Of a DNA stretch of 64,000 nucleotides, positions 1,106-10,026 are shown piece by piece. Source of the stretch: an uncultured delta proteobacterium (GTDB taxonomy: Bacteria > Myxococcota_A > Polyangia > Polyangiales > Polyangiaceae); contig CAWJCS010000006.1 in assembly GCA_963841435.1 (NCBI GenBank), forward strand, positions 1,440,001-1,504,000. Direction: 5' to 3'. A program made the translations under genes and the position numbers. The notes beneath the pieces were generated by a model, which saw nothing but the letters and a program-made list of their open reading frames with translations, ran no database searches and had not been told where the DNA came from. How positions within the stretch are numbered: position 1 is the first letter of the stretch; every line of letters begins with the position of its first letter.

Positions 1106-2750
1106 GGTGGGCCGTGAGCAGGCCCGTCGCCGAGCCGCCGACCACTCGCATCTCGACGACGACCTCGGGGCCCGTGACGGAGTCCGCATCGGCCGCACAC
1201 ACGCGCGTGCTCGCGACGTTCGAGCCACGTGAAAGCGCGAGCTCCGCGCCTTCGGCCGTGACGAAACGAAGCTCCGCGCCCTCGGCGCCCGCGCCGAGCG
1301 CCAGCGTCGCCTCGAGGCAGCGTCCGTAAGGCAGCGTGAGCGTGCGCTTGGCAATCGCCTCCGACGTGAGTGGATGCTCGTACACGGCACCCACGCGCCG
1401 GGCGGAGTCGATGATGCCGCGCTCCAGCATGCGGTGCAGCAGCCGCCCTGCACCGAGCGGGTGCGCTTCGAAGAGCTTCGGGGTGCCGCGCTCCTGCCGA
1501 AGCTCCACGGCGAACGGACCGGGGCGCGCGAGCGACTCGGCGTCGAGGCGGGCTCGGCCGGCCTTGCCGCACACGAAAAGCACCGGTTTCGGGCCTTCGT
1601 CGCGCGCGAGCAGCGCGCCGTCGTCCGCGTAGACCCAGACCCTCACGCCGCGTAGCGGAACGCCGCTCACCCAGTCGAGTCGGACACAGCCGCCCGGTAG
1701 GTCGAGCGACGTGCTCAGCCGCCGGCCGAGCGGCAGCGTGCCCGAAGCGACGACGCGACCCGCAGCGTAGCCGGCGCGCGCGAGCTCGGCGGAACGAAGC
1801 CGCCGTTCGTGGTTCACGTCCTCGCTCGCGAAGATCTCGAGCTTCTCGGTGGTGCGCTCGATGTCGCCCTCGGTTCCCTCGCGCGAGCGCGACATCATCA
1901 CGACCGCGAGTCCGATGCCGCCGTGGGGGCGAAGCTCCAGCGTCACGGTGGCGGGCGCGGGCGAACAGACGACGAGCGAGCGGTCGCGCCCTACGGCGTC
2001 CGCCCGCCCGATGATGCGCCCGTCGGCGTCGAGCAGCGTGAGGTCGAGCCCGGTCACCTCGTCCGACGGGATGGCGAGCACGTCGAGGCAGCGTTCGGCG
2101 TCGATCGGCGCAGAAAGCCGCGTCGGCGTGCGGGCGTCGAGCGGCACGGCGACGCGCCTGAGGTCGACCCACTCGCCGCCGACGAGCCGCCGGTGCTCGT
2201 CGATGCGCTCGTCGAGGCCCGGCCACACCGTCATGCGCCGAGCGAGCTCGCCGGGGCGATAGCGAGCGCCGTAGGCCTTCGCGACGCGCTCGGCGTCCCG
2301 CAGGAGCACGCGCTCGGCGCCGACGGCGACGAGGCCGTGGCCGGCCGCGATGCGCGCCATCAGCATGACGCGGCGCGGATGCGGCGGGCAGATGAGTAGC
2401 GACGGCGTCTTGTCGGAGCCCTCGTCGGAACCGAGCACGGCCCCGTCCTCGCCGTAGGCGAAGAGATCGACGTCGTCCACCGTCGAGGTGGCACGCGCGA
2501 TCGCGATCGCGCAGTCACCTTCGGGCACCTCGAGCAGGCTCGTCACGCGGTCACCCGCGACGCCGCCTTCGACGGCCAGCACCTCGGCGCCTCGCTTTGC
2601 CTCCGGGGAGAGCCAAGCGCTTTCGTTCGGCTTGCCGGGCAGCTTGCCGAAGCGGCCGGCCTTTTCCGTTTCCGCCGGGGGGCCCTGGCGGGAGCAGCCG
2701 AGCAAGAGCGTGAGCCCGAAAAGCTTCGCGAGCAGCGCGCCCCGGGTCAT
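1065..2750 (-). CDS. Hypothetical lipoprotein with four repeats of a two-Cys beta-rich domain
   Basis: Lipobox LLLG-C after MTRGALLAK. Four repeats of the form C...D.DL...DG..L..D...C. The ATG overlaps the upstream stop (ATGA). Confidence 0.75.
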   Translation of the reverse strand: MTRGALLAKLFGLTLLLGCSRQGPPAETEKAGRFGKLPGKPNESAWLSPEAKRGAEVLAVEGGVAGDRVTSLLEVPEGDCAIAIARATSTVDDVDLFAYGEDGAVLGSDEGSDKTPSLLICPPHPRRVMLMARIAAGHGLVAVGAERVLLRDAERVAKAYGARYRPGELARRMTVWPGLDERIDEHRRLVGGEWVDLRRVAVPLDARTPTRLSAPIDAERCLDVLAIPSDEVTGLDLTLLDADGRIIGRADAVGRDRSLVVCSPAPATVTLELRPHGGIGLAVVMMSRSREGTEGDIERTTEKLEIFASEDVNHERRLRSAELARAGYAAGRVVASGTLPLGRRLSTSLDLPGGCVRLDWVSGVPLRGVRVWVYADDGALLARDEGPKPVLFVCGKAGRARLDAESLARPGPFAVELRQERGTPKLFEAHPLGAGRLLHRMLERGIIDSARRVGAVYEHPLTSEAIAKRTLTLPYGRCLEATLALGAGAEGAELRFVTAEGAELALSRGSNVASTRVCAADADSVTGPEVVVEMRVVGGSATGLLTAHLTDSHPKRPAPAH

Positions 2751-3973
2751 TCGTCCTCCACGCCGGGGCGCAGGCGGCCCGATTGGAAGACGGCCGCCAT
2801 CCAGACGAGCCCGAGCCCGCGCGCGTCGATCTCGAGCAGGGCGCGGTCTTCCGGCCCGGCGCAGAACCCCAGCGCAGAGCCCGCGACGTCGCCGCGCAGT
2901 GGGCTCTCGACGTCGCCACGAGCGGTGCGGGCCGCGAGCGACAGCGCCGAAGCCTCGCCGCGCAGACCGACGACGAGCGCCACGTAGCACGCGAAGGGCT
3001 CGACCTCGATGCCCATCTGCGTATCGCCCTGTACCCCGAGCGACTCGTCGGCGAGGCGCGCGCCAGCGAGCGGAATGTGCTGGTCTCGGACGAGCGCGCT
3101 CATCTTGGCTCGCACGTCGGCGGCCCAGCGCCTGGGCAGCGCCGGCTCGAGGTCCCAGCGAGCGCGCAACAGCTCGAGTCGAGAGAACGGCGCCGCGCCG
3201 GCGAACCTGAGGCTCACGGGCAGCGGCGTGCCGACGCAAAGGAGCGCGCCCGCGTCGCTGCTTTCACCGTGGTCCTGGCCCAAAAGCTCGCCCGTGTCGG
3301 TGCGCGTGAGCTCGAGATCGACGTCGGCCGTGCGCTCGCCCGCGTCGTCGCTCAAGAGGTCGAAGCGATGACACCCCGGGCCGAGCGTCAGAACGGTCGT
3401 TCCCATGCCGAAGGCCGAGGCCGCGACGTCTTGCCGCGCGAGCTCGATGGCGCCCTCTCGAGCGGCTCGTGCCTCGATGGCGCGGAGCCTGAGGGCGAGC
3501 GGAAGCATCCCTGGGCGCGGTCCGAGCCCGGCCGTCGGCGCGATGGGCCCCGGGTCACGGTTCGGCAGCACGGTGGTGAGCGCCGGAACTGGCTTGTCCG
3601 ACGAGACGATGATGGTCTCGATCACGGCGCGCGGCGAACGCATCTGGATGGCGAGCAGGGCGAGTCGGGCCTTGTCCTTGCCGCAGCGTGAGAGCTCGAG
3701 CGCGCCCGCGAGGCTTCCTTCGGGCGTGTCGTCGTCGTGCGTGGCCAGCGCGGGCGCATCCAGGAGAAAATAAGTGCCGCTCGTGCCGAGCAACACCACC
3801 GTCGCGCAGCCGTGGCGTGACGGCATGAGGAGCTCGGGGGGAAGCAAGAGCGGCAACGATTCGCCGCGCTCGAGCAGACGCGGCGCGAGGCGCGTCACGT
3901 GGCCGAACGCGCTGTAGGCGAGCACGACGCGCTCGACGTCGTTGCCGAGGTCGGCTCGGGCGACGCCGGCCAC
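2747..3973 (-). CDS. Hypothetical exported protein, paralogous repeat domain (x3)
   Basis: The repeat GCHRFDLL...DVDLEL...LLGQD...LLCV resembles the downstream gene. Hydrophobic residues lie just upstream of the GTG, so the start is uncertain. Confidence 0.7.
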   Translation of the reverse strand: MAGVARADLGNDVERVVLAYSAFGHVTRLAPRLLERGESLPLLLPPELLMPSRHGCATVVLLGTSGTYFLLDAPALATHDDDTPEGSLAGALELSRCGKDKARLALLAIQMRSPRAVIETIIVSSDKPVPALTTVLPNRDPGPIAPTAGLGPRPGMLPLALRLRAIEARAAREGAIELARQDVAASAFGMGTTVLTLGPGCHRFDLLSDDAGERTADVDLELTRTDTGELLGQDHGESSDAGALLCVGTPLPVSLRFAGAAPFSRLELLRARWDLEPALPRRWAADVRAKMSALVRDQHIPLAGARLADESLGVQGDTQMGIEVEPFACYVALVVGLRGEASALSLAARTARGDVESPLRGDVAGSALGFCAGPEDRALLEIDARGLGLVWMAAVFQSGRLRPGVEDE

Positions 3974-4027
3974 GAGAAGGAGCGCGGCGACGAGCCCGGC
4001 CTTGAGGCGCGTTCGACGCCACGATCG

Positions 4028-4537
4028 TCAGTCCACTCGCTCGAAAGGCGCCTCGACGAAGGCGCGTGCGCCCCCGTCCCATACGAACAATCGATGAGCC
4101 GTCACCTGGCCGGCGTCGACCGCCGTGACCAGGTAGCAAAGGTCGTGGCTCGGGTCGCCGGTGCCCCCGAGCGTCATGCTGGCGGCGTCTTCGGCGCTGA
4201 AATACGCGCCGCAGTCGAGGTGCGAATGAAAGAACACCTTCACCGGGCGCCCGCTTTCGCGCCCATCCGCGATGGCGCGTTCGAACTTGAGCGCGTTGAT
4301 CTTGAAGTACTCGCGCCCCGTGCGCGGATGCCCATCCGGATCGACGGCATGGTACTTGTTGGCGAGGTTCTCGAGCTCGACGGCGCGATCGACGGCGAGC
4401 TCGTCGTCGGCGGGGCCCTCGAGGTAGCCACACGCTTCCTCGTCGCGCGCGTACGCGGCGACTCCGGCGCGCTCGACCTCGCTGAGCACGGCCCGGGGGA
4501 TCTTCACGCCCCCGCGCATCCAGGCTGGTACCGTCAT
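4028..4537 (-). CDS. JAB/MPN+ (M67) metallopeptidase, Mec-like sulfur-carrier peptidase
   Basis: JAMM motif EEACGYL...FFHSHLDCGAYFSAED. Directly downstream of cysM-like and CysO-like genes. Confidence 0.9.
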   Translation of the reverse strand: MTVPAWMRGGVKIPRAVLSEVERAGVAAYARDEEACGYLEGPADDELAVDRAVELENLANKYHAVDPDGHPRTGREYFKINALKFERAIADGRESGRPVKVFFHSHLDCGAYFSAEDAASMTLGGTGDPSHDLCYLVTAVDAGQVTAHRLFVWDGGARAFVEAPFERVD

Positions 4538-4541
4538 CGCT

Positions 4542-5489
4542 CTACCAAGTGTAACGCCGCTCCCACTTGAGCGGCGCGAAATAGCGATCGCCGCGATCAC
4601 AGGCGATCGTGACGACGCAGCCGCCGCCCGCCTCGCGCTGAGCTCGCTCGGCGACCACCACCGCGCCCGCGACGTTGGCGCCCGTCGAGTGACCGACGTG
4701 CAGGCCCTCGAGGGCCGCGAGCTTGTCCGCCATGTCCCAGCCGTCTTCGGTCGAAACCGGCAAGATCTCGTCGGGCACGTCGCGATCGAAGATGGGTGGC
4801 ACGATGCTCGAGCCCATGTGCTTGAGGCCTTCGAGCCCGTGCAGCGCTTCGGCCGGCTCGACGGCCACGCAGTGCACGGGCCGCGCGTGCTCGTGCAGCC
4901 GGCGCGTCGTTCCCATCATGGTCCCGCTCGTCCCGAGGCCGGTGACGAAGTGCGTGATGCGGTCGCCGAGCGCATCGAGGATCTCGCCGGCCGTGCCGTG
5001 ATAGTGGGCGAGGGGATTGGAGGGGTTCGAGTATTGATCGGGATAGAAGTACTTGTCGGGGGCCTCGGACACGACTTCCTTCACGAGGCGGATGGCGCCG
5101 TCCGAGCCCTCGAGTGGGTCGCTGAAGATGAGCTCCGTGCCGAACGCTTGCGTGATGTCCTTGCGGGCTTTGGTCACGTTCTTCGGCATCACGAGCTGGA
5201 CGCGAAAACCGAGCGCCGCGCCGATCAGCGAGTACGCGACGCCCGTGTTGCCGCTCGTCGAATCGATGAGCGTCTTGTCGGGCGTGAGGCGCCCATCGGC
5301 CATGGCGTCACGCACCATCCGCAGCGCCGGTCGGTCTTTGACGCTGCCCCCGGGGTTCGCAAACTCGAGCTTGACGTAGATCTCGACGTCGGGTGCGTTG
5401 GGCGCCACTTTGGAAAGCCTGAGGAGCGGCGTGTTGCCGATCGCGTCGAGAACGGACGCGAGCCTGCGCGAACGTGCGTGGCGCCTCAC
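4542..5489 (-). CDS. cysM: PLP-dependent cysteine synthase family (CysM-like)
   Basis: IGNTPL, NPGGSVKDR (PLP Lys), STSGNTG, GLGTSGT and DRGDRY motifs. The GTG start overlaps the upstream TGA. Confidence 0.88.
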   Translation of the reverse strand: MRRHARSRRLASVLDAIGNTPLLRLSKVAPNAPDVEIYVKLEFANPGGSVKDRPALRMVRDAMADGRLTPDKTLIDSTSGNTGVAYSLIGAALGFRVQLVMPKNVTKARKDITQAFGTELIFSDPLEGSDGAIRLVKEVVSEAPDKYFYPDQYSNPSNPLAHYHGTAGEILDALGDRITHFVTGLGTSGTMMGTTRRLHEHARPVHCVAVEPAEALHGLEGLKHMGSSIVPPIFDRDVPDEILPVSTEDGWDMADKLAALEGLHVGHSTGANVAGAVVVAERAQREAGGGCVVTIACDRGDRYFAPLKWERRYTW

Positions 5490-5767
5490 GGGCCGCCCTC
5501 GAGCACGTGCCTGAGCTGCCGCAGGGCCCTCCACGCGCCCGCGGCGTCGCGACGCGGCCCTTCGTGTCGAAACACCGTGGCGTGCGCGAAAGGCAGCGGA
5601 GGCCCCGAGGCCGGCGCGATCTCGTGCACACCCGCGCGCGCGAGGTACGTCGCTTCCGTCCACGCTTCGGGCGAGGCGGCGACGCCCAAGCGCGCCGCCT
5701 CGATGCGGGCCTGTCCGTCGTCCCCGACCTCGGCCAGAAGCCGCTGCCGCGCGTAGCGATCGCCCAT
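5486..5767 (-). CDS. Mini ThiF/MoeB-like protein (93 aa) with the RYARQ segment but no P-loop
   Basis: MGDRYARQRLLAEVGDDGQARIEAARLGV...YLARAGV matches the MoeB/ThiF N-terminus. Start and stop overlap both neighbours. Confidence 0.75.
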   Translation of the reverse strand: MGDRYARQRLLAEVGDDGQARIEAARLGVAASPEAWTEATYLARAGVHEIAPASGPPLPFAHATVFRHEGPRRDAAGAWRALRQLRHVLEGGP

Positions 5768-6036
5768 CACCCGCCCGCGATGGCCGGCACGATACTGATC
5801 TCCGTTCCGGCGCCGAGCTTCGTCTCGAGGCCGTCGAGGAAGCGAACGTCCTCGTCGCCGACGTAGATGTTGACGAACCGTCTCACGCCCTTTTCGTCGA
5901 GCAGGCGATCCTTCAGCCCGGGGTGCTGCTTGTCGAGGGTATCGATGACCTCGCGCAGCGTTCCGCCGTTCACCTGGACTGCATCGTTGCCACCCGTGAG
6001 GGTGCGGAGGGGCGTCGGGATGCGTACGGTGATCAT
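5767..6036 (-). CDS. MoaD/ThiS-family ubiquitin-like sulfur carrier (CysO/SAMP type)
   Basis: MITVRIPTPLRTLTGG...RRFVNIYVGDEDVRFLDGLET...IVPAIAGG, ending in a C-terminal GG. Confidence 0.93.
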   Translation of the reverse strand: MITVRIPTPLRTLTGGNDAVQVNGGTLREVIDTLDKQHPGLKDRLLDEKGVRRFVNIYVGDEDVRFLDGLETKLGAGTEISIVPAIAGG

Positions 6037-6836
6037 GGGTGGGCTCCTTGTTCTTGGCTGGTGGCGTCGCTCGAGCAGGTTTCGGTGTAGCAAACGCCGT
6101 CGATTCGAGAAATCCTAGGGCTCTTTCCGCAGAGTGGGCAGTCGTCACGCGCCGTGAGCGGGACGGTTCGCAGCCGGTCGCGGAGGCCGTCGTAGGTGAA
6201 GAGGATGCCGTGGCGCGGCGCGCCCACGAGCACGGAAAGCGCCAGATCGGCCATGAGCGCGCCCGCGAGGCCGACCACCGGGCCCATCACGCCCGCTTCG
6301 GCGCAGCTGTCCGCCGCGCCGGCCGGCGGGAGGTCCTCGAACAGGCACCGGTAGCACGGCCGACCGTCCGCCCCGACCCCGAGCACCGTGGCGCGAAAGC
6401 GCACGGCAGCGCCGTGCACGACGGGACGGCCTGCGAGGTGGCAGGCGTCGGCGGCGAGAAACTTGGTCGCGAAATTGTCGGCGCCCTCGAGCACGACATC
6501 GTAGTCCGCGACGAGCTCACGCGCGTTGTGAGGCAGGAGGCGCGTGCGGCGCGCTTCGATGCGCTGGAACGGCCGTGCCACGCGGCCGAGGGCGTCGAGC
6601 GCGGCGTCGAGCTTGTCGCGGCCCACGTCGGCGTCGCGATAGAGGATCTGGCGGTGCAGATTGGTCTCTTCGACCCGGTCGTCGTCGGCGAGCGCGACGC
6701 GTCCGACGCCCGCTTCCACGAGCGCCAGAGCCGCCGGGCAGCCGAGGCCACCGGCGCCGATCACGAGCGCGCTCCGTTCAGCGAGCGCGGGGCTCACCGC
6801 ACCAGGCTTTGGGCGTTCAGGTTCGAAAGTATTCAT
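6033..6836 (-). CDS. moeB: HesA/MoeB/ThiF E1-like adenylyltransferase (no rhodanese domain, no N-terminal RYxRQ)
   Basis: GAGGLG, NLHRQ, GADNF, CYRC, SCAEAGV and CPLC motifs. Confidence 0.9.
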   Translation of the reverse strand: MNTFEPERPKPGAVSPALAERSALVIGAGGLGCPAALALVEAGVGRVALADDDRVEETNLHRQILYRDADVGRDKLDAALDALGRVARPFQRIEARRTRLLPHNARELVADYDVVLEGADNFATKFLAADACHLAGRPVVHGAAVRFRATVLGVGADGRPCYRCLFEDLPPAGAADSCAEAGVMGPVVGLAGALMADLALSVLVGAPRHGILFTYDGLRDRLRTVPLTARDDCPLCGKSPRISRIDGVCYTETCSSDATSQEQGAHP

Positions 6837-7791
6837 CGAGGCTGAAATAGCGTTCCCCGGTATCGCAGAGCACCGTGACGACCGTCTTTCCCTCCCCGAG
6901 CTCGGCGGCAAGGTCGAGCGCGATGGCGACGTTCGCGCCCGCGCTGATGCCGACGAGCAGGCCCTCGCGCTTCGCGAGGTCGAGCTTCGTGCGGTAGGCG
7001 CGATCGTCGGAGACGGTGCGCACCTCGTGAGGCACGCTCGCGTCGTAGTTTTTCGGCACGAAGCCCGCGGCGATGCCCTGGATTTTGGTGGGGCCGCGCT
7101 CGCCGCGCGAGATCGTCGCGCAGGATTCGGGCTCGACGGCGACGACCCGGCACGCGGGGAAGCGCTCGGAGAGAGCGCGCCCCGCGCCGCTCACCGTCCC
7201 GCCCGTGCCCACGGCAGCGACGAACGCGTCGATCGGCTCCTGCCCCATCGCGTCGAGGATCTCGCGCGCCGTATGCTGGTAGTGAACCTCCGGATTCGCG
7301 GCGTTTTCGAACTGCTGGGGCATGAAGGAAAGTGGCGTCGACGCGGCGAGCTCGCGCGCTTTCGCGATGGCGCCGTCCATCTGCCCCGCTTCGGGCGTGA
7401 GCACGACCTCGGCGCCGAAGGACTGCAAAAGCTGCCGCCGCTCGAGGCTCATGCTCTCGGGCATCGTGAGCACGCAGCGATAGCCGCGTCGCGCACACAC
7501 GAGGGCGAGGCCGATGCCCGTGTTGCCGCTCGTCGGCTCGATGACGACGCCACCCGGCGCGAGCCGCCCCTCGCGCTCCGCGCGTTCGATCATCGCGAGG
7601 CAAATGCGGTCCTTCACGGAGCCGCCGGGATTCATGGCCTCGAGCTTGCCGAGGACACGCGCGCGCGGGCGCTCGCGTCCGAGCTGTCGGATCTCGACGA
7701 GCGGCGTGTCGCCGATCAGCTCGAGCACGTTGTCGTAGACGAGCGGGTGGTCGGGGGACGCTCGATGGCGTGCTTCAGATGACGTAGACAT
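6817..7791 (-). CDS. cysK: Cysteine synthase A
   Basis: NPGGSVKDR, EPTSGNTG, MPESMSLERR, QQFENAAN, GTGGT, KIQGIAAGFVP and DTGERYFS motifs. Confidence 0.93.
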   Translation of the reverse strand: MSTSSEARHRASPDHPLVYDNVLELIGDTPLVEIRQLGRERPRARVLGKLEAMNPGGSVKDRICLAMIERAEREGRLAPGGVVIEPTSGNTGIGLALVCARRGYRCVLTMPESMSLERRQLLQSFGAEVVLTPEAGQMDGAIAKARELAASTPLSFMPQQFENAANPEVHYQHTAREILDAMGQEPIDAFVAAVGTGGTVSGAGRALSERFPACRVVAVEPESCATISRGERGPTKIQGIAAGFVPKNYDASVPHEVRTVSDDRAYRTKLDLAKREGLLVGISAGANVAIALDLAAELGEGKTVVTVLCDTGERYFSLDEYFRT

Positions 7792-8236
7792 TGCGTTGCG
7801 AAAAAGGACGGCTGAGGCCGAGCTCGCTGGCGCGAGCGCAGACATCCGCGATTGTCACGGCGTCGAAGCATGCCTCGACGCGCGCGGAAAGGTCTCGGAA
7901 GACCGATTCGGTCACCCGGCGCGAGTCGGCGAGGCCCTCGGCGCGGCGCGTGCCCGTCTCGCGGTCGCCGAGCGCGATGGGGCCCTCGAGCGCCCGCACG
8001 ACATCGCCGAGCCGCACGTCGCTGGCCCGCCGGGCGAGGCTGTAGCCGCCCTGGGGCCCACGCTTGGATCCGACGATGCCCGCGCGCTTCAGGTCCTGGA
8101 AAATCTGCTCGAGAAACCGCGGGGGGATCCCCTGGCGCTCGGCGATGTCCTTGACCTGCGTGGGACCGCCATCGTTGTAGAACGCGATGTCGAACAGCGC
8201 GCGCACGGCGTAACGACCCTTGTTCGAGAGCTTCAC
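7775..8236 (-). CDS. Rrf2-family transcriptional regulator (CymR-like; lacks the IscR triple-Cys pattern)
   Basis: KLSNKGRYAVRAL...IPPRFLEQIFQDLKRAGIVGSKRGPQGGY. First gene of the cys operon. Confidence 0.9.
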   Translation of the reverse strand: MKLSNKGRYAVRALFDIAFYNDGGPTQVKDIAERQGIPPRFLEQIFQDLKRAGIVGSKRGPQGGYSLARRASDVRLGDVVRALEGPIALGDRETGTRRAEGLADSRRVTESVFRDLSARVEACFDAVTIADVCARASELGLSRPFSQRNVYVI

Positions 8237-8253
8237 GAAGGCCTCGTCCAGGG

Positions 8254-8281
8254 AGGCTAATTGTCGCATCGGATTTGTCAA
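8254..8281 (-). promoter_or_regulatory. Putative sigma70 promoter of the Rrf2-cys operon
   Basis: Minus strand TTGACA (8281-8276), N16, TAGCCT (8259-8254), about 18 nt upstream of the GTG start. Confidence 0.55.
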
Positions 8282-8328
8282 GAACCGACCGCGGCGTCGC
8301 CCTCGAGCGGCTGCGGGGCCCCCGTACT

Positions 8329-10026
8329 ATGTTGAAAGGAGTGCGACCGGCGTTGGTCTTTTGGGGGGCGCTCGGCGTGCTCGCGCTGGTCCGATGCGGG
8401 GGGCGGGCCGAGGAGCGAGCGCGGGTTCACTCCCAGCCGATGGGCGGCACCGCAGGAACCGCGGGGACGGCGCCCGTTGGCGGTGAAGCGGGCGTCTGTT
8501 CCGGGTGCGGCGGGGAAGGAGGTGAAGGGGCGCAGGGTGGGGTGAGCGAGATCGCGGGGACGGGTGGCCGCGCGGGCGGCGCCGGGAGCTCGGGCTCGGG
8601 CGGTGGTGGCGGTCTCGGCGCAGGGACGAGCGGGATGGGCGGCCTGGCTGGCGAGGCCGGCCAAGGCGGCGCGGGGGACGAGGGTGTGGCGCTCACGAAG
8701 CTCGCCGTGTACCAGGCCGTCGAGGTGCCGCTCATGTCGGGCGGGCGGATTCCGGCGCGCAACGCCGCGCTCGTGGCGGGGCGGCGGGCGCTCGTCCGGG
8801 CGTGGCTCACTCCGAGCATGACGGCCGCGCCGCGCGCGCTCCGGGGAACGTTGACGCTCGAAAACAGCCTCGGCGAGAGCACGTTCGACGCCGACTTGAC
8901 GCTCGCGGTCCCCTCGACCGACGCCGAGCTGGGCTCGACGCTCGACTTCGAAATTCCCGCCGCGCTCGTGAGCGAAGATGCGGCGCTCGCGGTCACGGTC
9001 TTCGACGCGGAGGACGACGTGGAGCTTGCGCGTTGGCCGGTGAGCGGCAAACAGGCGCTCGCTGCCGAGGATTCGCACGGACCGTTCGTGCTTTCGCTCG
9101 TGCCGCTCGTCGTCGCAGGCCATGTGCCCGACCTCTCGATCCCGGTCCGCAAGCGTTACGAGCGGCTCATGCGCGCCATGTATCCGGTGCCCGACCTCGT
9201 GGTGACCGTGCACGGCGCCGTGACGCTGTCGTTCGACGTGCTTGCCGACGGCACGGGCTGGGACGAAGCGCTCGACGAGCTCTACGCGGTGCGCGCCGCC
9301 GACGACCCGGCGCCGAATGCCTACTACTACGGCGTGCTCACCCCCCGCGCGACGAGCGACGAGTACTGCCCGCGCAACTGCACCGTCGGGCTCTCGGTCG
9401 TCGCCGGGGCGAACGAGGAGCTTTATCGGGGCTCGATCGGCACGGGTTACTTCGACCGACCGAGCGACACGTTCTCGCCGGAGACCATGGCGCACGAGCT
9501 CGGCCACGCGCTTGGTCGCGACCATTCGCCTTGCGGCACGACCGACTCCGATCCGCGGTTTCCGTACGGCGACGGTTTCATCGGCAGCTGGGGTTACGAC
9601 GGCTCGAGGCTTCGCAACCCCGCCGTCGATACCGACGTCATGGGCTACTGTGTGCCGGTCTGGATCAGCGACTATACCTACGATCGCCTCTTCACGCGGA
9701 TCGCCTACGTGAACGGGCTTGCTCCCCGCGAAAGTGGCAACGCCCTGCCTGGTGGGGCCAAGACGTCCTTCCGTACGCTCGTCGTGCGGCCGGACGGCAC
9801 GCTCCGCTGGGGCCGCAAGAAGGTCACGCGTGGCGAGCCACCGGCGACGAAACGGAGGGTGGAGCTTCTCGACGCGAACGGTCGGGTCCTCGCGACGATC
9901 GAGGCGCCGTTCGCGCGTTTCGATCACTTGCCCGGCGGCTTTCTCACGCTGCCGTCCGGCGTGGTTGACGCGCCGGGCGTCGCGTCGCTTCGCGTCGGCG
10001 CCCAGACGCTGCGACGCGCTCCGTGA
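8329..10026 (+). CDS. Exported zinc metallopeptidase (M66-like) with Gly-rich N-terminal linker
   Basis: Signal or lipoprotein-like N-terminus, GGxAG repeats, AHELGHALGRDH zinc motif, WGYD and DVMGYC Met-turn. Confidence 0.8.
   Translation: MLKGVRPALVFWGALGVLALVRCGGRAEERARVHSQPMGGTAGTAGTAPVGGEAGVCSGCGGEGGEGAQGGVSEIAGTGGRAGGAGSSGSGGGGGLGAGTSGMGGLAGEAGQGGAGDEGVALTKLAVYQAVEVPLMSGGRIPARNAALVAGRRALVRAWLTPSMTAAPRALRGTLTLENSLGESTFDADLTLAVPSTDAELGSTLDFEIPAALVSEDAALAVTVFDAEDDVELARWPVSGKQALAAEDSHGPFVLSLVPLVVAGHVPDLSIPVRKRYERLMRAMYPVPDLVVTVHGAVTLSFDVLADGTGWDEALDELYAVRAADDPAPNAYYYGVLTPRATSDEYCPRNCTVGLSVVAGANEELYRGSIGTGYFDRPSDTFSPETMAHELGHALGRDHSPCGTTDSDPRFPYGDGFIGSWGYDGSRLRNPAVDTDVMGYCVPVWISDYTYDRLFTRIAYVNGLAPRESGNALPGGAKTSFRTLVVRPDGTLRWGRKKVTRGEPPATKRRVELLDANGRVLATIEAPFARFDHLPGGFLTLPSGVVDAPGVASLRVGAQTLRRAP

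Follow-up and report, generated by a model that had tools for sequence, protein, structure and literature searches.

The window analysed here, 64,000 nucleotides of a contig (CAWJCS010000006.1, positions 1,440,001 to 1,504,000) from an uncultured member of the Polyangiaceae, carries on its minus strand a run of genes for a cysK-type enzyme, a ThiF/MoeB-type E1, a ThiS-like carrier ending in Gly-Gly, a protein of 93 aa, a cysM-like enzyme and a JAMM peptidase, linked by overlapping start and stop codons. The host is a soil myxobacterium. Upstream on the same strand, as context, lies a gene for an Rrf2-family transcription regulator (7775..8281; Pfam Rrf2, E 3e-36), followed by a cysteine synthase A gene of the cysK type (6817..7845; TIGR01139, 385.7 bits, above the cut-off of 350.95) whose stop codon (6817–6819) falls 20 nt inside the E1 gene. 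The latter (6033..6836, with its ATG at 6836) encodes an adenylyltransferase of 267 aa that matches Pfam ThiF (PF00899) at 191.5 bits against a cut-off of 28.1, and it overlaps, through an ATGA junction, the gene for a ThiS/MoaD/SAMP-like sulfur-carrier protein of 89 aa with a C-terminal Gly-Gly (5767..6036; Pfam ThiS, E 4.9e-14; NF041918 SAMP1, E 3e-14). The 93-aa open reading frame (5486..5767) is joined to the carrier gene through a TGATG overlap and encodes a degenerate relic of the first portion of a ThiF adenylation domain (TIGR02356 positions 1–49, E 8.8e-6). Its TGA stop overlaps, as GTGA, the GTG start of a gene for a cysM-like PLP-dependent cysteine synthase (4542..5489; Pfam PALP, E 2.4e-60), which scores 320.2 bits with the cysM equivalog model TIGR01138, below the cut-off of 394.2. 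The last gene (4028..4537), whose start is uncertain (ATG 4537 or GTG 4600), specifies a Mec+-like JAMM/Prok-JAB metallopeptidase with the HSHLDCGAYFSAED motif (Pfam Prok-JAB, 36.3 bits; cut-off 25). Scans of 3500–9500 returned neither an Rfam RNA family nor a promoter-like site, and the E1, carrier and small genes (5486–6836) contain no terminator-like site.

The Gly-Gly-ended beta-grasp carrier, the PLP cysteine synthase and the JAMM peptidase together make up a CysO-CysM-Mec+ gene set, here present in one operon with an E1, and the order is kept in relatives. In CysO-CysM-Mec+ chemistry, cysteine synthesis is carrier-dependent and proceeds through a protein thiocarboxylate. The operon contains no rhodanese gene, and its open reading frames and profile matches include no catalytic-cysteine domain, no ubiquitin-fold domain and no E2.

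An E1 chain without the arginine-finger segment

Textbook bacterial E1-like enzymes such as MoeB and ThiF are symmetric homodimers. The operon E1 is a clear member of the same family, sharing with MoeB, ThiF and Uba4 the P-loop, the NLxRQ arginine, the lysine, the aspartate and the pair of zinc CxxC motifs. GAGGLG occupies residues 27–32, NLHRQ 59–63, CYRC 161–164, SCAEAG 177–182 and CPLC 233–236, and Lys75, Asp120, C161/C164, C233/C236, GAGGLG and NLHRQ are invariant in 72 homologues (for the roles of the residues, PMC12355090 and PMC7527816). The P-loop begins 26 residues after the ATG. Residues 18–234 match PF00899 profile positions 18–237 of 238, TIGR02356 matches from its position 19 and the NCBIfam models all begin at position 18–43, so that ThiF profile positions 1–17 are missing from the chain. 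The first-pass annotation had pointed to GAGGLG, NLHRQ, the two CxxC motifs and SCAEAG, to a missing RYxRQ segment and to cysK as a block to any upstream extension, and all of these are in the sequence.

No RYxRQ...G..GQ segment was found in frame upstream of the E1 as far as the TTG at 6911, a stretch that overlaps cysK. Orthologous E1s likewise do without the motif: an N-terminal RYxRQ upstream of the P-loop occurs at none of 12 E1 loci and at none of 23 loci picked through E1 (35 loci in all). The possibility that a frameshift or a mis-called start hides the N-terminus was considered and rejected, because the DNA upstream belongs to cysK and the motif is absent both in the window and at 34 other loci. 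By these comparisons the E1 is a chain that has evidently lost the N-terminal segment of helices 1 and 2, which carries the arginine finger, and has kept all the remaining catalytic motifs.

A small protein resembling the start of the adenylation domain

The small protein starts MGDRYARQRLLAEVGDDGQARI and keeps an Arg7-Gln8 arginine-finger motif, a G..GQ motif, the YLARAGV stretch and a long C-terminal helix. It has no Cys and no GxGxxG, the arginine of NLxRQ is replaced and the nucleotide loop is degenerate. The earlier description of a translationally coupled 93-aa frame with YLARAGV, with neither the loop nor cysteine, is therefore correct as to sequence, including the overlap with the carrier gene. 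The further claim that this partner carries only the arginine segment proved too narrow: the protein corresponds to the ThiF domain from helix 1 through helix 2, strand 1 and helix A to strand 2, and has the long C-terminal helix besides.

Against PF00899 itself the small protein scores 10.8 bits, under the 28.1 cut-off, and is to be read as a homologous fragment only. A profile of its family matches Uba4 residues 11–76 (E 1e-6), ThiF 7–61 (E 1.3e-5) and MoeB 10–60 (E 1.1e-3), with marginal matches to the N-terminus of NAE1 (E about 0.6). In the ThiF alignment the Arg-Gln of the family falls on ThiF R11-Q12, so that Arg7 corresponds to ThiF Arg11, the arginine finger that acts in trans; its counterpart in MoeB is Arg14. 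Judged by profile coverage, the two chains are complementary in architecture, the E1 covering ThiF positions 18–237 and the small protein 1–49, and the complementary losses first noted at this locus are borne out.

Modelled alone with AF2, the small protein reaches pLDDT 95.7 and pTM 0.86; its 93 aa form two strands together with four helices, and it is predicted to fold compactly by itself. A Foldseek search with this isolated model gave zero matches at E<=0.001; the best match was ThiF (1zfn, E 0.019, TM 0.50), with ThiF, Uba4 and MoeB all at TM of about 0.5 and SAE1 chains among the weak matches.

Conservation, linkage and fusion of the two genes

The small-protein family comprises 202 cluster representatives at E<=1e-10, nearly all of 90–110 aa; among the matches listed (of 202), 147 of 150 representatives are at most 140 aa long. 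Arg7 is kept in 128/131 aligned members, Gln8 in 129/131, and none of the 131 departs from Tyr41 or Gly46. A set of 26 clusters has 48–59% identity, and the indels in the alignment of these 26 sequences are in-frame. A chance open reading frame in GC-rich DNA, considered as a trivial explanation, was rejected on this family conservation together with the in-frame indels. The small protein evolves faster than the E1 and the carrier: the median NG86 dN/dS is 0.53 for its gene, 0.33 for the E1 and 0.23 for the carrier, values that lie on the constrained side of neutrality, as the first-pass annotation would expect of a functional gene, but that are weak evidence because the estimate is saturated, with synonymous sites near saturation and GC3-biased.

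The order E1-carrier-small protein recurs at 11/11 loci of relatives, and the small gene is present in 22/24 genomes of the same genus, the two without it being 67% and 77% complete. At loci picked through E1 only, from many genera, the small protein lies downstream on the same strand in 22/23; the co-occurrence that had been proposed as a check is thus seen, and the small gene is conserved and syntenic. Several complete genomes of 11–13.6 Mb are among those with the pair. At two of the 23 loci (L069 and L076) the carrier, cysM and JAMM genes are absent, yet the E1 still adjoins the small protein. The exception is genome G265 (98% complete), which has the truncated E1, the carrier, cysM and JAMM and keeps a full-length ThiF, and in which the small protein is absent both from the locus and from the whole genome. 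A truncated E1 may therefore work without the small protein, which counts against the obligate heterodimer of the first proposal.

The two proteins also occur as one. Four clusters of 355–367 aa, 63–81% identical, join E1, a linker of ~20 residues and the small protein in a single chain; they come from three genomes, all of genus g247, and contain no stops. The AF2 model of one fusion has pTM 0.88, with pLDDT below 50 in the linker (257–273) and 91–96 in the small-protein part, the alignment having consisted of fusion and E1 rows only, with 4 rows covering the small-protein part. A scan of metagenomes for the neighbourhood of the fusion gene gave E1-type matches only and did not find the fusion. 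These natural fusions support an association between the E1 and the small protein.

Taken as sequence evidence, the small protein is a real, constrained family. It is worth considering the contrary view, in which the small open reading frame is what is left of a duplicated E1 gene, decaying and functionless, and the truncated E1 is an ordinary homodimer, like TcdA-like enzymes without the finger. Its dN/dS is the highest of the three genes, the gene has been lost in G265, and E1-like enzymes without a finger do exist (PMC13139853). We nonetheless regard this explanation as very improbable: a decaying remnant is at odds with a frame of ~90–110 aa that has stayed intact in 202 clusters and has invariant or near-invariant residues, with indels that stay in-frame across 26 sequences, with presence at 22 of the 23 E1-selected loci in many genera, with in-frame fusion to the E1 in one genus, and with the confident predicted fold and complex.

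Predicted complex of the E1 and the small protein

Predictions containing two copies each of the E1, the small protein and ATP gave ipSAE values of 0.89, 0.89 and 0.88 for the E1-small protein complex, as against 0.00 for the best of 3 controls; the mark used for ipSAE is reached by 58/80 solved complexes and by 2/110 mismatched pairs, a calibration from which our own alignments and the riding ATP depart. The runs shared at least 89% of their contacts, and the pLDDT of the partner was 88 or higher. The multimer modelling of E1 and small protein that the first-pass annotation had suggested passes its controls, and the small protein is predicted to bind the E1. The score could in part come from solved ThiF/MoeB dimers, or inactive/active domain pairs, that the predictor has memorised. 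As to stoichiometry, a 1:1 heterodimer may stand in place of the homodimer, or two small proteins may sit on an E1 dimer. No residue-level description of the canonical MoeB/ThiF dimer surface, against which the docking site could be compared, was found in the papers examined.

The confident predicted interface includes small-protein residues 3–8, with Arg7 and Gln8, and E1 residues 57–62 (E-T-N-L-H-R). The strongest predicted contacts are helix-helix, between E1 186–197 and small-protein 66–82, and the arginine helix is not among them. This pattern invites a reading in which the small protein binds the E1 as a structural or regulatory subunit, one that would stabilise it, cap its dimer surface, bring in a sulfurtransferase or CysM, or hold down its activity, with the arginine adding little to catalysis. 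The operon would fit such a role, being without a rhodanese, unlike the E1-rhodanese fusions of the same operon type described in PMC1779556, so that a sulfur-delivery partner is needed; and G265 manages without the small protein. A pure scaffold, however, has no need to keep an Arg-Gln motif across about 200 clusters, the finger pair is among the best-kept residues of the family, and residues 3–8 lie in the confident interface with the NLHRQ loop of the E1. On balance we judge a purely structural or regulatory role to be rather unlikely.

The same genome offers a possible second way to complement the truncated E1. On the same contig, away from the operon, a gene encodes a rhodanese-MoeB protein of 394 aa, with an N-terminal rhodanese, ThiF profile positions 1–237 and its own ERYSRH helix. 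The E1 might pair with this full-length protein, which would then be the source of the arginine helix as well as of the persulfide, leaving the small protein accessory or redundant. With its own helix the rhodanese-MoeB might, in principle, make up for what the E1 lacks, the two share 38% identity over 223 residues, and G265 combines a full-length ThiF with the absence of the small protein. We consider this pairing quite improbable, given that no positional link connects the rhodanese-MoeB gene with that of the operon E1, that the E1 and small-protein genes remain neighbours, or are fused, even where other operon genes are gone, and that the interface predicted between these two is confident.

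Discussion

We lean modestly toward the reading that the E1 of this CysO-type operon consists of two polypeptides, a catalytic chain of 267 aa and a degenerate start of an adenylation domain of 93 aa, the latter docked as a minimal inactive adenylation domain. The operon itself would be a CysO-type route to cysteine by way of a protein thiocarboxylate, with steps drawn from the known pathway: the E1 would adenylate the C-terminal Gly-Gly of the carrier, the carrier would be converted to a thiocarboxylate, CysM would join this thiocarboxylate to activated serine, and the JAMM peptidase would free the cysteine. In the docked complex, helix A and the C-terminal helix of the small protein would pack on helix A and the long helix 180–201 of the E1, and this docking would set the Arg7/Gln8 helix beside the NLHRQ phosphate loop, the small protein acting as a minimal "inactive adenylation domain." We infer that Arg7 touches ATP and matters for the rate.

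ThiF Arg11 and MoeB Arg14 (PMC13139853) and Uba4 Arg18 (PMC7527816) act in trans, a principle that the two-polypeptide arrangement would share. PMC13139853 also reports the MoeB Arg14 and ThiF Arg11 fingers to be non-essential for catalysis, and E. coli TcdA to be without a finger, points that speak against the proposed role. In MoeB, ThiF and Uba4 both protomers are active, and each has its own arginine helix reaching the ATP site of its partner; in the present system that helix is found on a degenerate 93-aa protein of its own and is missing from the catalytic chain at 35/35 loci.

It is informative to compare this arrangement with known asymmetric members of the family. In SAE1-SAE2 and NAE1-UBA3 there are, as here, two polypeptides; the inactive one of those pairs, without nucleotide binding, gives an arginine to a single active site (PMC12355090 and PMC10557695), as the small protein would, and the functional analogy to SAE1 and NAE1 in the first-pass annotation's idea of a prokaryotic two-subunit E1 can be kept. 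The structural likeness cannot: SAE1 and NAE1 each have a complete adenylation-domain fold, exceeding 300 aa and bearing insertions, whereas the small protein, at ~90 residues, amounts to roughly one third of such a domain. A catalytic-cysteine domain, a ubiquitin-fold domain and an E2 are all missing here, and the pathway would be one of sulfur transfer, not conjugation. The origin here also appears to be independent, within Myxococcota. BilD, of the BilABCD antiphage system, is a bacterial E1 with inactive and active adenylation domains, the inactive one donating Arg9, and differs in being one chain of two full domains, the inactive first, which also has a CYS domain and works with an E2 (PMC10557695); here there are two genes, and in genus g247 one chain in the reverse order, active first and relic last. 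The yeast ct6A dehydratases Tcd1-Tcd2 form a ThiF-family heterodimer in which the non-catalytic subunit completes the site of the other with an arginine finger, but there each subunit is a ThiF domain of full length, the enzyme acts on tRNA and R59A had little effect (PMC13139853). The same gene set is seen in the mycobacterial CysO-CysM-Mec+ system with MoeZR and in operon type 4c of Iyer et al. 2006, which share the Gly-Gly-ended carrier, cysteine synthase, JAB/JAMM peptidase and E1 (PMC1779556 and PMC3227635); in those systems the E1 is one chain joined to a rhodanese domain, and here it is in two pieces in an operon without one. Our literature searches found no description of such a two-piece bacterial E1.

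A bolder form of the two-polypeptide reading would hold that myxobacteria independently evolved a genuine two-subunit E1, in which a relic of ~90 residues, the smallest known inactive adenylation domain, replaces the second protomer and its arginine is required for the single ATP site, one genus having re-joined the pieces active-first. We put this forward tentatively, as possible but somewhat on the doubtful side.

The small gene stands in public records as "hypothetical protein" or is uncalled, and this calls for an annotation fix. A conserved split of this kind would give a minimal and tractable model for the evolution of the inactive/active asymmetry seen in the E1s of ubiquitin, SUMO and NEDD8. 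The contribution of the trans arginine helix could also be tested directly, because the helix is on its own polypeptide and can be omitted or mutated there. If the bolder reading of a genuine two-subunit E1 is true, these myxobacteria would hold a living series that leads from a symmetric MoeB-like dimer to an asymmetric E1 of eukaryotic type through partial duplication, degeneration and complementary loss.

An E1 chain without its N-terminal segment

The adenylyltransferase encoded at 6033-6836 (minus strand) retains the catalytic motifs of a ThiF/MoeB-type E1 (GAGGLG, NLHRQ, two CxxC and SCAEAG) and, as the first-pass annotation had described, lacks the N-terminal RYxRQ...G..GQ segment that carries the arginine finger. 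Specifically, the Pfam ThiF profile (191.5 bits) matches it only from profile position 18 onward, and every match to the NCBIfam MoeB, ThiF and MoeZ models begins at model position 18-43. The P-loop starts 26 residues past the ATG, and the segment is absent from the E1 frame further upstream, where the DNA is the end of cysK; the start of the gene is uncertain, yet none of the candidate starts brings the missing segment back. A public gene call (P0032, 243 aa) begins 24 residues after the ATG at 6836, just ahead of the P-loop. None of the orthologous E1s examined retains RYxRQ: the N-terminal motif occurs in 0 of 12 E1s in the survey of close relatives, and neither RYxRQ nor RQ..L...G..GQ lies in the 60 residues of E1 frame that precede the P-loop at any of 23 loci chosen through E1 matches alone (three automatic and 20 picked, about one per genus, not at random).

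This gene belongs to a series on the minus strand in which the stop codon of one gene overlaps the start of the next: cysK (6817-7845), the E1, a GG-ended ThiS-like carrier (5767-6036), a 93-aa open reading frame (5486-5767), a cysM-like synthase (4542-5489) and a JAMM peptidase (4028-4537). Upstream of cysK lies the gene of an Rrf2-family regulator (7775-8281, minus; E 3e-36), and directly downstream of the JAMM gene a 408-aa frame (2747-3973, minus) for which a Pfam search returned no family. A divergent gene (8275-10026, plus strand) encodes a 583-aa protein with a Gly-rich N-terminus and weak matches to M66/reprolysin-like metallopeptidases (E 2.6e-6).

The small protein is a relic of an adenylation domain

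The 93-aa product, which starts MGDRYARQRLLAEVGDDGQARI, had been described as carrying only the arginine segment. It does carry that segment, with no GxGxxG and no Cys, but its homology runs on through strand 2. The ThiF model TIGR02356 aligns with the protein over model positions 1-49 (E 8.8e-6), and a profile of 131 family members, when compared with solved E1-like enzymes, matches Uba4 (residues 11-76, E 1e-6), ThiF (residues 7-61, E 1.3e-5), MoeB (residues 10-60, E 1.1e-3) and, marginally, the N-terminus of NAE1 (E about 0.6), with no convincing match beyond the N-termini of such enzymes. In the ThiF alignment the family's Arg-Gln falls on R11-Q12, and alignment start coordinates place the arginine column at MoeB residue 14. 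The profile alignment continues through strand 1, a degenerate nucleotide loop, helix A (YLxRAG) and strand 2 to the place of NLHRQ, where His alone is left. Judging from sequence, the C-terminal helix (AAGAWRAL.QL) may be the counterpart of the helix after NLxRQ or, alternatively, as a weak BLAST alignment (E 1.8) would have it, of the long helix after the crossover loop. AlphaFold2 folds the protein alone into four helices and two strands (pLDDT 95.7, pTM 0.86), and a Foldseek search with this model gave weak matches only, headed by ThiF, Uba4, MoeB and SAE1. Given this fold and the homology past the arginine segment, "only that segment" is too little: the small protein corresponds to about the initial third of an adenylation domain, surviving as a degenerate relic.

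Conservation and co-occurrence with the E1

A word-indexed search found 26 clusters (93-108 aa, 48-59% identity), named in their sources as hypothetical proteins or not at all, and in an exhaustive search with the profile 1303 proteins matched at E<=0.001, with 202 reaching E<=1e-10; 147 of the 150 proteins listed do not exceed 140 aa. Tyr41 and Gly46 are kept in all 131 aligned members, Gly18 and Ala81 in 130 each, Gln8 in 129 and Arg7 in 128. Matches occur among uncultured Polyangiaceae and Myxococcales MAGs, and the neighbours in the ESM Atlas are Myxococcota clusters. The phylum-level tally of 183/301 should not be read as the number of small genes, because the profile also picks up the N-terminal ends of full-length ThiF genes of the ordinary kind; whole-profile matches with small open frames come for the most part from two families of one order, the window's own (f1) and f9, whose loci share the window's synteny. 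Within the genus, the small gene occurs in 22 of 24 other genomes; those lacking it are 67% and 77% complete. The order E1-carrier-small gene is kept at 11/11 relatives' loci, and cysM and JAMM come next in 10, which are all those long enough. Across pairs with dS<1.5, the small gene has a median pairwise NG86 dN/dS of 0.53, above the 0.33 of the E1 and the 0.23 of the carrier, values that lie near saturation and are weak evidence.

The co-occurrence anticipated by the first-pass annotation was borne out when the 23 E1-selected loci were searched with HMMs from the small-protein and E1 alignments: 22 have a small-protein match downstream on the same strand (E 1e-11 to 7e-37). Taken together, these sequence comparisons indicate that the small gene is a real, conserved partner gene of the E1. 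The sole exception, L081 (G265:C11:4058000-4061600), lies in a genome that is 98% complete; a truncated E1 is present, cysM and JAMM come straight after the carrier, and searching the whole genome for the small gene brought up nothing but the N-terminal part of a full-length ThiF. Of all the results, this one speaks most strongly against the obligate pairing suggested in the original proposal. At two other loci, L069 (G478) and L076 (G621), the small gene stands directly 3' of the E1, with no carrier, cysM or JAMM found within 3.6 kb. By eye, frames resembling the 408-aa frame in size and C-terminus lie 3' of the pair at both, and at L076 an Rrf2-like frame precedes the E1, as the Rrf2-family gene does in the window.

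A predicted complex and natural fusions

A complex was predicted from two copies each of the E1 (72-row alignment), the small protein (131 rows; the scored partner) and ATP. The E1-small protein ipSAE was 0.89, 0.89 and 0.88, against 0.00 for the best of three controls, with contact agreement between runs of at least 89% and partner pLDDT of at least 88. That mark is met by 58/80 solved complexes and 2/110 mismatched pairs, counts that are rough here, the present runs having their own alignments and ATP along. The model supports binding without demonstrating it; the pass may reflect memory of solved complexes and, because ThiF/MoeB dimers and pairs of inactive and active domains have been solved, shows at least a likeness to these. 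The confident interface comprises small-protein residues 3-8, 10-11, 13-14, 28-46, 50-52 and 61-86 and E1 residues 4, 6-9, helix A (34-42), 57-62, 64, 146-147, the long helix 180-201 and 206-224, with the lowest-error pairs between E1 186-197 and small-protein 66-82. E1 residues 57-62 and 64 (E-T-N-L-H-R and I) form the phosphate loop with the equivalent of MoeB Arg73. In a pseudo-dimer, with which the model is compatible, helices of the relic would pack against helix A and the long helix of the E1, which we take to be the canonical MoeB dimer surface, and the Arg7 helix would lie by the ATP site; the stoichiometry could be 1:1 or 2:2.

Among longer relatives, a search turned up four clusters (355-367 aa; P0168, P0300-P0302; mutual identity 63-81%) in which a truncated-type E1 leads, through a variable linker some 20 residues long, into the small protein, so that the active part comes first. 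In the order-level genome search the fusion was uninterrupted by stops in three genomes, all of one genus (g247; L059-L061), where it adjoins a long open frame that by eye is ilvD-like (dihydroxy-acid dehydratase) and is not beside carrier, cysM or JAMM; the fusion E1s have lost the SCAEAG cysteine. An AlphaFold2 model of one fusion, whose alignment held only fusion and E1 rows (four for the small-protein part), has a linker (257-273) with pLDDT below 50 and block means of 91-96 in the small-protein part, and from its whole-chain pTM of 0.88 we infer that the relic has a defined position on the E1. In a further protein, P0198 (211 aa), a carrier ending AIAGG continues in frame into small-protein sequence, which may be either a genuine fusion of carrier and relic, one that the JAMM peptidase would cleave, or a called read-through. 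That the 93-aa frame is a functionless remnant is very improbable in light of the fusions with the E1, the conservation of the family and the predicted fold.

A proposed two-polypeptide E1

The reading we favour, by a little over even chances, is that the E1 consists of two polypeptides, with the relic serving as its minimal inactive subunit: docking on the E1, it would restore the missing N-terminal helices and the arginine. It is rather unlikely, by comparison, that the relic binds the E1 in a structural or regulatory role, for which the G265 exception speaks, as do the MoeB and ThiF fingers, which are reported to be non-essential (PMC13139853). A pairing of the window's E1 with the genome's only full-length ThiF-family product seems improbable; that 394-aa protein (L013, G000:C6:644504-648211, ORF 1102-2286) joins an N-terminal rhodanese to a MoeB domain, and its finger motif reads ERYSRH, His replacing Gln.

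By analogy with operon type 4c of Iyer et al. 2006 (PMC1779556) and the mycobacterial CysO system (PMC3227635), adenylation of the carrier would lead to a thiocarboxylate, condensation by CysM and release by JAMM. Unlike in those systems, a rhodanese is neither fused to the window's E1 nor encoded in its operon, and sulfur would therefore have to come from a separate donor. In ThiF and MoeB each protomer donates the aligned arginine to its partner's ATP site (PMC13139853, PMC7527816), and in eukaryotic E1s and the bacterial BilD the same arginine comes from an inactive adenylation domain (PMC12355090, PMC10557695). Our literature search brought up no account of either a split ThiF/MoeB-type E1 or the small-protein family, and the passages searched in Iyer et al. 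2006 mention neither. Both the family of the enzyme and arginine donation as a principle are already known; the bacterial arrangement of two genes with a 90-residue relic, and its permuted single-chain version, appear to be new.
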